From a virus: a DNA stretch of 64,000 nucleotides. The notes below the pieces were generated by a model. The model saw only the letters and a program-made list of their open reading frames with translations, was not told the DNA's origin and did no database searches. Position numbers and translations under genes: made by a program. Below, one piece after another: positions 24,552 to 38,518 of the stretch. Each line of letters begins with the position of its first letter. The first letter of the stretch is position 1. The stretch is taken from IMG/VR virus record IMGVR_UViG_3300032285_003860. One strand, written 5' to 3'.

Positions 24552-24637
24552 GCATGGTTATTCCGTAGGAGTAGCGGGGCAGACTGTAAATCTGCTGCTT
24601 AATTGCTCGGGGAGTGCGACTCTCTCACCATGCACCA
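24552..24637 (+). tRNA. tRNA-Tyr(GTA), A18/G55 variant
   Basis: GCATGGT/ACCATGC-ACCA; GCAGA-CTGTAAA-TCTGC; T-loop TGCGACT. Confidence 0.88.
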
Positions 24638-24641
24638 TTTA

Positions 24642-24717
24642 CGAAGCGTAGGATAATGGCTATTCCGCCAGTTTTGGGTACTGGATATTGTGGATTCGAG
24701 TTCCACCGCTTCGACCA
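24642..24717 (+). tRNA. tRNA-Pro(TGG)
   Basis: CGAAGCG/CGCTTCG-ACCA; CCAGT-TTTGGGT-ACTGG; TTCGAGT loop. Confidence 0.92.
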
Positions 24718-24718
24718 T

Positions 24719-25090
24719 TTAATCAGCGTGAAGTTCTGCGTGGCAATTAGCGCAAATTAACTCGCATTTTTCGGCTTCTTTATAAGCAGCAGCTTTTCCT
24801 TTTAAAGCAAATAATTTACTAACTAAAGCTTCTTTTTTTAAAGGGTCTTTATGGTGAAAATGTAAAGCATCAAAACACTTATCATAAGAACACCTAGAGC
24901 ATTTTCCCCCGTAAAGATTTTTTAATTCAAATAATTGAATTTTTCTATTTTTTCGGCGATATGCTAAAAATTTTTCTTTTGCTCCTTCGGCGCAATGATA
25001 ATTAATTGTAGCTTTTGAGCAGTTTAGTATTTTGGAAATTTCACTATAAGATTTCCCTTTTTTTCTTAATTTGAGTATTTTTTCTTTCAT
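24719..25090 (-). CDS. HTH-HNH homing endonuclease inserted in tRNA cluster
   Basis: GKSYSEISKILNCSKATI HTH; GGKCSRCSY...LHFHH...CELICANCHAELH. Confidence 0.88.
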   Translation of the reverse strand: MKEKILKLRKKGKSYSEISKILNCSKATINYHCAEGAKEKFLAYRRKNRKIQLFELKNLYGGKCSRCSYDKCFDALHFHHKDPLKKEALVSKLFALKGKAAAYKEAEKCELICANCHAELHAD

Positions 25091-25190
25091 AAAAGAACTT
25101 ACACAAGTTTAAATCATTTGAGAAGACTCGAACTATTTATGCGACAATAATCATAATTTAATTTTATGCGTTATATAGCAGATAATTTAT

Positions 25191-25264
25191 GCGGTAGTGT
25201 TGTAGTAGTAGCAAACGAGTTTTCCAAACTTGGAGTGACGGGGCAGAACCGTCTTACCGCACCA
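25191..25264 (+). tRNA. tRNA-Gly(TCC), A18/G55 variant
   Basis: GCGGTAG/TTACCGC-ACCA; CGAGT-TTTCCAA-ACTTG; T-loop GGCAGAA. Confidence 0.85.
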
Positions 25265-25271
25265 TCTTTAT

Positions 25272-25364
25272 ACCCCCCGCAAACGCTATGCTATTGCAAA
25301 ATAGCATCGACGCAGCATGAGACTAGGACACATGATGGTCTAGTGGACGCACTAGAATGGGGGT
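25272..25364 (+). ncRNA. Unassigned multi-arm structured RNA between tRNAs
   Basis: ACCCCC/GGGGGT closing stem; ATGCTATT-GCAA-AATAGCAT; TCTAGTG-GACG-CACTAGA. Confidence 0.55.
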
Positions 25365-25377
25365 TTGTTAATTTCAT

Positions 25378-25452
25378 TCCAAAATAGCTCAATGGTGGAG
25401 CAAGATGCTGTTAACATCAAGGTTCTAGGTTCAAGTCCTAGTTTTGGAGCCA
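25378..25452 (+). tRNA. tRNA-Asn(GTT)
   Basis: TCCAAAA/TTTTGGA-GCCA; CTGTTAA loop; TTCAAGT. Confidence 0.92.
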
Positions 25453-25538
25453 ATTCTAATTATATGAAAAATATCTTTTTAGAGGTTTTTGAGCGTCTAA
25501 TTATATGAAAATCTTTTCGCAGGTGCGAGAATGGTGGA

Positions 25539-25563
25539 GGCGCAGGGAAACCTGCGCCCTTTT
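25539..25563 (+). terminator. Intrinsic terminator
   Basis: GGCGCAGG-GAAA-CCTGCGCC-CTTTT. Confidence 0.7.
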
Positions 25564-25568
25564 AATTT

Positions 25569-25697
25569 ATGTTTAAATATTTAATAATAATTTCTTTGTT
25601 TTTGGCAGGTGGATGTAGCTCAATGCAGCAAAATCAAAATTCTGATTCTCCAAATATTATGATAATTGGTGGTTATGTGTTAGTAATGCCAGAATAG
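25569..25697 (+). CDS. Small lipoprotein (42 aa)
   Basis: MFKYLIIISLFLAGGC lipobox. Confidence 0.5.
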   Translation: MFKYLIIISLFLAGGCSSMQQNQNSDSPNIMIIGGYVLVMPE

Positions 25698-25778
25698 AGT
25701 GTAAGCCATTATGAGTGATTATTTTTTGGATAATGTTAGGAATTTGTTTTTTATATTTATGTAAAAATAAAGATTAAC

Positions 25779-25852
25779 TCCCGCTTAGTATAAAAGTATT
25801 ACAAGAGACTTTGAATCTCAAGAAATTGGAGCATTACCAGTAGCGGGAACCA
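25779..25852 (+). tRNA. tRNA-Gln(TTG), A18/G55 variant
   Basis: TCCCGCT/AGCGGGA-ACCA; CTTTGAA loop; T-loop AGCATTA. Confidence 0.85.
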
Positions 25853-25873
25853 TAAAGCCGTGTATTATAAATT

Positions 25874-26164
25874 ATGAGTAATAAATATTATTTAGAAATC
25901 AATTTGTTAAGCAATGCAGACATAGAATCTGATGCAAGAGACATTTCCTATAAATCTCGCAAGGAAATGAAAGATAGTGATTTTCTTGACCCAGAAAATC
26001 GCAGTTTTCCAGTCACAACCTGTGAAGATGTAATGGCAGCAGTTCACGCATGGGGAAGATATAAAGGCTCAATGAGCTTTGAAACTTTTAAAGCTAAACT
26101 CACTCGCAAAGCGCATCAACTTGGATGCAAACTTCCAGAAAGCTGGACAGAAAAAAAGGATTAA
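25874..26164 (+). CDS. Conserved phage protein (DUF6582-like)
   Basis: RKEMKDSDF..PE.RSFPV....V.AA....GR motif. Confidence 0.65.
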   Translation: MSNKYYLEINLLSNADIESDARDISYKSRKEMKDSDFLDPENRSFPVTTCEDVMAAVHAWGRYKGSMSFETFKAKLTRKAHQLGCKLPESWTEKKD

Positions 26165-26165
26165 T

Positions 26166-26459
26166 ATGCCCTCAGTAAAAAAAGGTGAGAAACAATCTCA
26201 CTATATGCACCGCTGCGTACCTATGCTCATCAAAGAAGGCAAGAAGCAAGACCAAGCTGTAGCTCAATGCCTTTCCATGTTTAAACAAAAATGGAAAGCA
26301 AAAGGCGAAGAAGTACCAGATGAATCATCCGCTGAATTTCAAAATGCCCTTGCCAACTTTGATTGGGATAATTGCCCCGAATGTCTTGCTAGAGAATCAG
26401 AAGCAAATCATAAAATCGGCATATTTAATATTGACTTTCCAAATAAAAAACTTTCTTAA
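26166..26459 (+). CDS. Conserved phage protein
   Basis: MP...GE...YM.RCV.....EG...DQAVA.C motif common in phage head-associated genes. Confidence 0.65.
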   Translation: MPSVKKGEKQSHYMHRCVPMLIKEGKKQDQAVAQCLSMFKQKWKAKGEEVPDESSAEFQNALANFDWDNCPECLARESEANHKIGIFNIDFPNKKLS

Positions 26460-26462
26460 ATT

Positions 26463-27209
26463 GTGCAAAATATAATTGAAATAGATTTTAGCGAACTTAA
26501 CAGTTTTAGTTCTTTAGGTTTTAATAAAGAATCATTAACAAATACAATTAATTATTTATCAAATAAAAATAAAGTTTTAGTTTTGGCTACTTCCAATCGC
26601 TGGGAAGGCGGCGATTATGAACCAGCAAAATCAACGCAACTTGCCCAATTTGTTACTAAAAAGTTAGGTTCTAAAGCCTCTTTTATTGATGTTAGCAAAT
26701 TACATATTGAAATTTGCGAAGGAAATGTTTCAACTAATTTAGGCAATCGTTGCGGATTAAAAGATGCTTCATTAAAAGACAAAGACAAAAATCCAAGTGG
26801 ATACCATCGTTGTTGGGCAAGCATAAACAATCAAGACGATGAATTATGGAAGATTAGCAAAGAGCTTTTTCAAAGCGATGCAGTATTATTTTTTACTTCT
26901 ATCCGATGGGGGCAAACAAATAGCATTTATCAAAAATTAATAGAAAGATTAGACTGGATTGAAAATCGCCACACCACTTTGGGCGAAGATAATATAGTTA
27001 AAAACATAGACGCAGGAATTATTGCCATTGGTCAAAATTGGAATGGGAAAAACGTAATAAATACAGAATCTCAAGTTTTAAAGTATTTTGGTTTCAAAAC
27101 CCCCAGCGAATTAGCTTGGAATTGGCAATATACAAGCAATGACTTGGATGAATCTCAAGAAAGTTATAAGGCGGCAGTCAAATCTTTTGATAAAACTTTT
27201 TTAACTTGA
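26463..27209 (+). CDS. Flavodoxin-like NAD(P)H-dependent FMN reductase family protein
   Basis: KVLVLATSNR, IDVSKLHIEICEG, SDAVLFFTSIRWG, LIERL. Confidence 0.75.
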   Translation: MQNIIEIDFSELNSFSSLGFNKESLTNTINYLSNKNKVLVLATSNRWEGGDYEPAKSTQLAQFVTKKLGSKASFIDVSKLHIEICEGNVSTNLGNRCGLKDASLKDKDKNPSGYHRCWASINNQDDELWKISKELFQSDAVLFFTSIRWGQTNSIYQKLIERLDWIENRHTTLGEDNIVKNIDAGIIAIGQNWNGKNVINTESQVLKYFGFKTPSELAWNWQYTSNDLDESQESYKAAVKSFDKTFLT

Positions 27210-27238
27210 CATTTTTAGCCGTAAGAGTTAATATAATT

Positions 27239-27321
27239 ATACAGAGTCACCCTTAATTTTGCTGTTTCTTGGGGGCTTATATTTGCTGAAGCACAACAGC
27301 GCCAAGCAAATAACTTTGTAT
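27239..27321 (+). ncRNA. Putative three-way-junction RNA with kissing loops
   Basis: Begins at the predicted TSS of a TTGACA(27206)-N17-TAATAT promoter; ATACAGAGT/ACTTTGTAT, CCCTTAA/TTGGGGG, TATTTGCT/AGCAAATA; loops contain GCTGTT and AACAGC. Confidence 0.5.
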
Positions 27322-27371
27322 TTTGTGTCGCATCCCGATAGGAGGATTCCATAAGGGTCGGCACATTTTTT

Positions 27372-27446
27372 GCCGGATAAGCATAGATAGCGATGCAGGG
27401 GTTTTGTAAACCTCAGAGGAGAGCGCAAGTCTCTCATTTGGCTCCA
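27372..27446 (+). tRNA. tRNA-Thr(TGT), A18/G55 variant
   Basis: GCCGGAT/ATTTGGC-TCCA; GGGGT-TTTGTAA-ACCTC; T-loop CGCAAGT. Confidence 0.85.
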
Positions 27447-27506
27447 TTTTGTCAGCAGACCCCCGCCGCCTCTTAATAATGCGTAATCGTGGGGGTGTTT
27501 AATTTT

Positions 27507-27582
27507 GGGAGATTAGCTCAGTTAGTAGAGTAGCTCGCTTACACCGAGAAGGTCACAGGAGCAAAGCCTGTATCTCCCACCA
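27507..27582 (+). tRNA. tRNA-Val(TAC), A18/G55 variant
   Basis: GGGAGAT/ATCTCCC-ACCA; CTTACAC loop; T-loop AGCAAAG. Confidence 0.88.
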
Positions 27583-27591
27583 TTTTAAATT

Positions 27592-27680
27592 GGATGAGTA
27601 ACCAGACAGGCGAACTGGAACCGACTTGAAATCGGCTTGTTCCTTACGGGAATGGGTTTCGACTACTCACTCATCCGCCA
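27592..27680 (+). tRNA. tRNA-Ser(TGA)
   Basis: GGATGAG/CTCATCC-GCCA; CTTGAAA loop; long variable arm; TTCGACT. Confidence 0.9.
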
Positions 27681-38261: not shown

Positions 38262-38338
38262 GCGCTTGTAACTCAGTTGGATAGAGTAACTGCCTTCTAA
38301 GCAGTTTGTCGTGGGTTCGACTCCCGCCAAGCGCACCA
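38262..38338 (+). tRNA. tRNA-Arg(TCT)
   Basis: GCGCTTG/CAAGCGC-ACCA; CTTCTAA loop; canonical GG and TTC. Confidence 0.95.
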
Positions 38339-38350
38339 CTTTAATAAATT

Positions 38351-38436
38351 GGCGATATGGTGAAATGGCAGACACAAGGGACTTAAAATCCCTCGACTTT
38401 AAAATCGTGCGGGTTCAAGTCCCGCTATCGCCACCA
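38351..38436 (+). tRNA. tRNA-Leu(TAA)
   Basis: GGCGATA/TATCGCC-ACCA; CTTAAAA loop; long variable arm. Confidence 0.95.
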
Positions 38437-38442
38437 ATTTAT

Positions 38443-38518
38443 TCTCCTATAACTCAATGGTTAGAGTAATCTCTTTATAAGGGAAAGGTTGCTGGTTCGA
38501 GTCCAGCTAGGAGAACCA
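38443..38518 (+). tRNA. tRNA with TAT anticodon (Ile, reads AUA)
   Basis: TCTCCTA/TAGGAGA-ACCA; ATCTC-TTTATAA-GGGAA; GCTGG-TTCGAGT-CCAGC. Confidence 0.85.

Follow-up and report, generated by a model that had tools for sequence, protein, structure and literature searches.

The contact between G18 in the D loop and pseudouridine 55 in the T loop is taught as one of the invariant contacts that lock the L shape of tRNA, and it defines the substrates of the modification enzymes TruB, TrmA and TrmH. Five of the eleven tRNA genes in a 64,000-nucleotide stretch of the virus record IMGVR_UViG_3300032285_003860 (hereafter the window) carry A18 and G55 at these two positions. We read these five genes as probably encoding working elongator tRNAs, with A18/G55 in place of the inner G18-pseudouridine 55 contact (a probability of roughly 0.8). 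The closest published precedent is found in Staphylococcus aureus, whose non-proteinogenic tRNA-Gly species lack G18, G19, U55 and C56 and serve peptidoglycan synthesis (PMC4574755). They resemble the window variants as natural bacterial tRNAs without the G18/U55 signature, but they have also lost G19 and C56 and are diverted from translation, whereas the variants keep G19-C56 and are spread over many amino acids.

T-loops outside tRNA follow the consensus YGNRA, and the base intercalating between their positions 4 and 5 is almost exclusively adenosine in biology; it forms two hydrogen bonds with the position-2 G, on its sugar edge (10.1101/2022.12.26.521914). The T-loops of flavin mononucleotide (FMN) and cobalamin riboswitches are like those of the variants in having a G at position 2, a purine at position 4 and an adenosine free to intercalate; in the variants, however, the motif stands inside a tRNA, position 3 is a fixed C paired to G19, and in place of Y-A, positions 1 and 5 frequently have G-G, A-A or A-U. 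With canonical tRNAs of the RF00005 family, such as the tRNA-Tyr of phages Ro1 and Zyzzx and the tRNA-Thr of phage PVP-SE1, the variants share the cloverleaf, the anticodon loop, G19-C56, CCA and identity-type features, and they depart from them in A18, G55 and a 54/58 combination no longer fixed as U-A. No published description of A18/G55 in tRNA was found in a full-text literature search whose coverage did not extend to subscription journals.

The A18/G55 elbow within the window

The tRNAs for Tyr, Gly, Gln, Thr and Val combine A18-G19 with N54-G55-C56, so that the G18-U55 pair is gone in all five, and those for Pro, Asn, Ser, Arg, Leu and Ile combine G18-G19 with U54-U55-C56. An earlier note on this DNA had described this partition, and it is borne out: the D-loop and T-loop strings it quoted for the five variants are all found where it placed them, and the identity of position 18 agrees with that of position 55 in 11 of 11 tRNAs (Fisher exact p = 0.0022). 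The range it gave, 24552-27582, holds for seven of the tRNAs and leaves out tRNA-Ser (27592-27680) and the Arg, Leu and Ile genes (38262-38518). The G19-C56 tertiary pair is kept in every variant. U54-A58 is found in tRNA-Tyr alone among them, the corresponding bases being G/G in Gly, A/U in Gln, C/A in Thr and A/A in Val. The same two bases appear at 18 and 55 in every variant, a pattern that random decay would not be expected to give.

The intact stems and CCA ends that the earlier note ascribed to these genes are likewise present. In the variants for Gly, Gln, Thr and Val, 19-21 of the 21 possible stem pairs form and the anticodon loop has 7 nt and U33; the cloverleaf of tRNA-Tyr is given by ARAGORN, the minimum-energy folds of Gly, Gln and Thr are cloverleaves, and the discriminator and CCA (NCCA) are gene-encoded in all eleven window tRNAs. 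At default settings ARAGORN reported six tRNAs, and Rfam at its gathering threshold (29 bits for RF00005) also reported six; tRNA-Val was the only variant in each set, and four of the five variants escaped default gene-finder settings. With permissive filters RF00005 also matches Gln and Gly, at scores above that threshold. When its threshold is lowered to 80%, ARAGORN gains Tyr, Gln and Ser as well as Thr in another fold, but tRNA-Gly is not called even then. Since a default-filter covariance-model search missed the window's own Thr and Gly, we adopted a loop-blind cloverleaf scanner, which considers stem pairing and U33 alone and ignores loop sequence. It recovered all eight class I window genes with 19-21 of 21 pairs. 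At 19/21 pairs it yields roughly two false hits, AT-rich ones, in 128 kb, and because of these the cut-off was set at at least 20/21 pairs with at least 35% stem GC. A covariance model made from five window tRNAs (R1), run with filters off over all 64 kb, returned exactly the 11 tRNAs and nothing else convincing.

The eleven tRNAs correspond to eleven different amino acids, and the variant and canonical sets do not overlap. The codons served are heavily used by the phage, CAA making up 70% of its Gln codons and GGA 38% of its Gly codons. As a separate observation, the tRNA-Ile has a UAU anticodon and would decode ATA, 26% of the phage's Ile codons, without lysidine.

The variants might instead be non-translational tRNA-like RNAs, acting as decoys or processing signals or donating amino acids off the ribosome, as the Staphylococcus tRNA-Gly does for the cell wall. 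The elbows of the S. aureus tRNA-Gly indicate that non-canonical elbows can mark ribosome-diverted tRNAs, and the low scores of the variants under standard tRNA models are consistent with such a role. We nevertheless regard this as highly improbable, since the variants have retained complete acceptor stems and CCA along with G19-C56, U33 and anticodon loops of 7 nt, bear five different anticodons of which none duplicates the canonical six, and share their elbow with a bacterium's sole-copy tRNA-Phe and with tRNA-Met, as described below.

Covariation of positions 18 and 55 in phages and cells

At 80 IMG/VR loci sharing an FMN-reductase-like gene with the window (26463-27209; 54-71% identity) there are almost no tRNAs nearby, so the position of the array is not conserved and orthologous arrays cannot be aligned. 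Because the array has no synteny in relatives, covariation was tested directly. A search of IMG/VR for the common D arm with A18 yielded 114 loci, at which most complete tRNAs carry NGC T loops on inspection by eye. Among the unique unseeded tRNAs that the loop-blind scan found at these loci, 257 were GG/U55, 37 were A18/G55, one was A18/U55 and none was G18/G55 (Fisher p = 2e-46). The reciprocal scan, seeded on a T arm with G55, gave 40 tRNAs with A18 against 1 with G18, and its unseeded neighbours comprised 19 A18/G55 and no G18/G55. No exact match to the T arm of the window's tRNA-Val was found in IMG/VR.

Shared descent was controlled for with a tree built from 53 positions, from which the D, variable and T loops were excluded. 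On its supported branches there are 21 independent pairs, in about 18 of which position 55 tracks position 18 and in none of which it is opposed (sign test, p about 8e-6). The expectation of the earlier note that 18 and 55 covary is thus upheld in larger samples, where the covariation is near-perfect.

At least 29 different anticodons occur among A18/G55 tRNAs. Arrays with both elbow types were found at 23 loci, and others are nearly pure variant arrays (9/10 tRNAs at locus L174 and 7/8 at L193). Further positions distinguish the variant class. G55 is accompanied by R57 in 5/5 window variants, 71/71 viral variants and 50/50 cellular variants; the 54-58 pairs covary (U-A 34, G-G 21, U-G 5), G54 always occurring with G58, a combination never found among 253 canonical tRNAs. 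The commonest variant T loops in the collections are UGCRA, which fit the YGNRA consensus of the generic T-loop. Intermediates are rare and one-sided: A18/U55 was seen in 11 tRNAs (4 from the viral and 7 from the genome set) and G18/G55 in 1, and this near absence of G18/G55 beside A18/U55 suggests an ordered two-step path in which G18A would precede U55G.

The switch can also be followed within tRNA families. The window tRNA-Tyr has 81-83% identity to the tRNA-Tyr of Hafnia phage Zyzzx and Raoultella phage Ro1, in which GG and TTC occupy the columns aligned to its A18 and G55. The window tRNA-Thr is one of a family of phage tRNA-Thr genes recognizable by A8, a D stem of the GCAT/ATGC type, a D loop whose last bases are GCG and a variable loop of 4 nt, and it is like the PVP-SE1-type tRNA-Thr in A8, D stem and variable loop. 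Canonical members of this family are found in Salmonella phage PVP-SE1 and as one copy on contig L178, and A18/G55 members at L135, at L193 and as a second copy on L178. Apart from the elbow, the family (window 27372-27446; L135, L178, L193 and L318:884-958) has A8 for U8 and G21 for A21 with both elbow types, which hints at a rewired 8-14-21 triple.

A BLAST search of tRNA-Val and the whole array against 50,697 phage records returned canonical tRNAs alone, at 76-84% identity, with one exception. This is Sinorhizobium phage Phosso, a cultured jumbo phage with an unannotated A18/G55 tRNA(TGG) whose T loop is GGCGGCG, and which may offer an experimental system.

The same pair occurs in cells. 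The A18 D arm was found in genomes of candidate phyla radiation (CPR) bacteria, Omnitrophota, Planctomycetes and DPANN archaea, with G55 in 47 of 54 unique seeds. The A18/G55 tRNAs of CPR and other small genomes, among them a Parcubacteria-type tRNA-Phe(GAA) and a Saccharibacteria tRNA-Thr(TGT), have the same pair in the same D-arm context as those of the window; unlike them, they are chromosomal, usually number 1-4 per genome, mostly have U54-A58 and often lack an encoded CCA. In a Zambryskibacteria genome (G001, contigs C1 and C2; 0.48 Mb and possibly incomplete), 43 tRNAs were listed, and A18/G55 is carried by the sole tRNA-Phe, by both CAT-anticodon tRNAs (tRNA-Met) and by tRNA-Ala(GGC). 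Because no cell lives without these tRNAs, A18/G55 must work in translation. The TruB_N domain (PF01509) had no match in this genome, which may be incomplete; as a separate observation, U55 is still present in 35/43 of its tRNAs despite the missing match.

Since hundreds of tRNAs from phages show the swap with near-perfect covariation, and so do tRNAs that ultra-small bacteria cannot do without, it appears to be a working second design of the tRNA corner. The earlier note's proposal that A18/G55 is a compensated elbow, selected rather than decayed, is strongly supported by the two-way covariation, the phylogenetic control and the essential CPR tRNAs with the same pair. Decaying pseudogenes that happen to share two substitutions, a reading for which the low RF00005 and ARAGORN scores might speak, we consider excluded by the 19-21 of 21 stem pairs, the CCA ends, the sameness of the two bases and near-perfect covariation in hundreds of tRNAs from many lineages.

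One account holds that A18/G55 is a near-neutral second stable solution, independent of pseudouridine 55, 5-methyluridine 54 (m5U54) and 2'-O-methylguanosine 18 (Gm18), which was reached through a tolerated A18/U55 intermediate and spread where the constraint imposed by TruB, TrmA and TrmH is weak, as in phages and reduced genomes. The low frequency of A18/U55 with G18/G55 almost absent, as along an ordered path, is consistent with this, as are the common mixed arrays and the lack of a TruB_N match in the Zambryskibacteria genome with its A18/G55 tRNA-Phe and tRNA-Met. However, little can be built on a TruB missing from an incomplete genome, TruB is present in a Nanosynbacter genome whose tRNA-Thr is A18/G55, and neutrality does not explain the almost wholly converted arrays. 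We hold this account as a tentative possibility.

Structural reading of the elbow and its possible benefit

If the five genes encode working tRNAs, then A18 with G55 would substitute for the G18-pseudouridine 55 contact at the inner elbow, with G19-C56, the four stems, the anticodon loop and CCA retained. The T loop would shift from the tRNA type, U-U-C-R-A with an intercalating G, to the generic (Y/N)-G-N-R-N, in which an adenosine would lie between positions 57 and 58 and hydrogen-bond with the sugar edge of the second loop base, a G. A18 is placed in the sequence where it suits this intercalating adenosine of the generic T-loop. By analogy with other structured RNAs, the tRNA form (UUCRA with an intercalating G) looks like the odd one out among T-loops, and A18/G55 looks like an elbow written in generic T-loop grammar. 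Such an elbow would preserve the L shape as well as the flat outer face that RNase P and the ribosome recognize, this face being unchanged because C56 still pairs with G19. We infer the three-dimensional geometry, the charging and the ribosomal use of these tRNAs in this phage.

Several points weigh against reading the variants as working tRNAs with a generic T-loop elbow. Neither tRNA-Thr nor tRNA-Tyr was reported by RF00005 in permissive scans, even at E <= 10. Sampling of the collections started from particular D-arm or T-arm contexts, and the samples include related sequences. Gly, Gln, Thr and Val depart from the usual U-A at 54 and 58, so that more contacts differ than the one pair, and YGNRA, which calls for Y at position 1 and A at position 5, strictly describes only Tyr (U, A) and Thr (C, A), the bases there being G and G in Gly, A and U in Gln, and A and A in Val. 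Finally, the swap was not what emerged in yeast, where the T loop doubles as the B box of RNA polymerase III and thereby confounds the result of mutational scanning of the tRNA gene SUP4oc. In that deep mutational scan, G18A was rescued by U20G alone and by no change at position 55 (PMC4117946).

By definition, neither pseudouridine 55 nor Gm18 can be formed in the variants, and in four of them m5U54 cannot be formed either. The sites of TruB (U55), TrmH (G18) and, in those four, TrmA (U54) are accordingly gone, as is the UUC motif. A benefit as modification independence or as escape from nucleases or elbow-reading factors, which the earlier note had suggested, is plausible. The retained G19-C56 argues against escape from readers of the outer face, such as RNase P, the L1 stalk and the T-box.

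Phage tRNAs are known to dodge anticodon nucleases through changes in the anticodon loop. The variants are like these evaders in the idea that a tRNA sequence departs from that of the host to escape a tRNA-targeting defence, and unlike them in that the change lies in the elbow and no targeting nuclease is known for the window phage. For T-loop nucleases, escape is plausible because of the requirements of one such enzyme, the CRISPR-associated Schlafen nuclease CbCash, which cuts tRNA mainly in the T loop, directly 5' of U55, and whose cleavage is abolished by a single mutation of U54 or U55 (PMC13462974, 2026). The driver of the swap might then be anti-defence, the phage tRNAs becoming immune to nucleases that recognize the UUC U-turn so that translation continues after host tRNAs are cut. 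This would fit the loss of U55 in all five variants and of U54 in four, CbCash requiring both, and the frequency of the variant in phage arrays, some of them almost wholly converted. On the other hand, six tRNAs of the same phage retain UUC, which would make the protection partial, and phage escape explains nothing about the chromosomal use of the pair in CPR bacteria, Omnitrophota, Planctomycetes and DPANN archaea. Among about 60 open reading frames of the window, moreover, no tRNA-modifying, tRNA-repair, CCA-adding or anti-nuclease gene was seen. We therefore judge an anti-defence driver to be unlikely, and we are equally doubtful of the fuller proposal of a counter-defence elbow that would be hidden from Cash-type nucleases, and perhaps others, and would have no need of host TruB, TrmA or TrmH. 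If true, it would give the phage a private, nuclease-proof translation supply for its most-used codons.

Genome setting, other elbow types and significance

The DNA of the window comes from a large uncultured phage and encodes rIIA and rIIB, ribonucleotide reductase, an ATP-dependent DNA ligase, ThyX, dCMP deaminase, dUTPase, UvdE, sigma factors and glycosyltransferases. Its closest rIIA match, at 27% identity over most of the length, comes from an uncultured 595-kb phage, and no cultured phage is close to it. Coordinates of the tRNAs and of other RNA features are collected in Table 1.

Table 1. RNA genes and RNA motif matches in the window, and the A18/G55 tRNA of phage Phosso
Feature	Coordinates	Strand	D loop and T loop	Support and remarks
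tRNA-Tyr(GTA), class II, variant	24552-24637	+	A18-G19, D loop ..AGGAGTA..; T loop TGCGACT (U54 G55 C56 G57 A58)	ARAGORN at 80% threshold; R1 13.1 bits
tRNA-Pro(TGG), canonical	24642-24717	+	GG / TTCGAGT	ARAGORN default; RF00005 57.8 bits
tRNA-Gly(TCC), variant	25191-25264	+	D loop AGTAGTA; T loop GGCAGAA (G54 G55 C56 A57 G58)	RF00005 42.2 bits (permissive filters); 21/21 stem pairs (loop-blind scan)
tRNA-Asn(GTT), canonical	25378-25452	+	GG / TTCAAGT	ARAGORN default; Rfam; loop-blind scan
tRNA-Gln(TTG), variant	25779-25852	+	D loop AAAAGTA; T loop AGCATTA (A54 G55 C56 A57 U58)	RF00005 43.4 bits (permissive filters); ARAGORN at 80% threshold; fold z-score -3.2
tRNA-Thr(TGT), variant	27372-27446	+	A8; D loop AGATAGCG; T loop CGCAAGT (C54 G55 C56 A57 A58)	21/21 stem pairs (loop-blind scan); R1 25.9 bits
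tRNA-Val(TAC), variant	27507-27582	+	D loop AGTTAGTA; T loop AGCAAAG (A54 G55 C56 A57 A58)	ARAGORN default; RF00005 55.5 bits
tRNA-Ser(TGA), class II, canonical	27592-27680	+	GG / TTCGACT	ARAGORN 80% threshold; R1 13.9 bits
tRNA-Arg(TCT)	38262-38338	+	canonical elbow	ARAGORN default; RF00005 69.1 bits
tRNA-Leu(TAA), class II	38351-38436	+	canonical elbow	ARAGORN default; RF00005 60.8 bits
tRNA-Ile(TAT)	38443-38518	+	canonical elbow	ARAGORN default; RF00005 64.8 bits
Transfer-messenger RNA (tmRNA)	15062-15436	+		Rfam 128 bits; also ARAGORN
CyVA-1 RNA motif, sub-threshold match	27241-27319	+		33.7 bits vs gathering score 41.4; E = 8.5e-6 in 500-base search; immediately upstream of tRNA-Thr
abiF RNA motif, sub-threshold match	27462-27494	+		25.4 bits vs 37; Thr-Val spacer
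Phosso A18/G55 tRNA(TGG)	PV764938.1 ~427,989-428,065 (L316:2634-2710)			between two annotated tRNA-Leu genes

The tmRNA has the tag peptide ANALKSLAFVPVVGREVAAVA, and the T arm of its tRNA-like part is canonical (GGTTCAACTCC). Besides the two sub-threshold motif matches, the Gly-Asn spacer (~25265-25377) contains C-rich/G-rich hairpins resembling that of the abiF-like spot in the Thr-Val spacer.

Two further elbow types were observed in the collections. In one, A replaces G19 and U replaces C56 (D loop ..TGATA, T loop TTTGAnT), so that the outer pair becomes A19-U56; it was found at IMG/VR loci L122, L135 and L149, in Phosso (L316:3358-3431) and in Saccharibacteria (L238, L256, L259). In the other, G18-G19 is combined with U54-C55-C56 (TCCGAnT), in phages and CPR bacteria alike; it was found at IMG/VR loci L103, L112, L115, L165 and L171 and in four tRNAs of the Zambryskibacteria genome G001 (for example C2:104339-104410). 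The A18 D arm also occurs in a conserved element with a tRNA-like 5' half (acceptor strand and D arm) followed by ..CAGAGTAAAA..ATCCTGTT.., which lacks an anticodon and a T arm (L086, L092, L094, L110, L130, L155, L192; also L105, L129, L149). Some A18-type tRNA genes have long insertions after the anticodon stem or loop (L089, L111, L133, L144/L146, L154, L187), and these insertions are possibly introns.

The observation itself is confirmed, and its proposed benefit is plausible. A second, naturally widespread solution to the elbow changes what counts as universal in tRNA, and it would connect tRNA with the grammar of generic T-loop and adenosine receptor that other structured RNAs follow. 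It also means that gene finders systematically miss real tRNAs of phages and CPR bacteria. The A18/G55 tRNAs offer a natural setting in which the role of pseudouridine 55 and the chaperone function of TruB can be tested, and they are a concrete candidate, open to testing, for phage evasion of immune nucleases that cleave the T loop.

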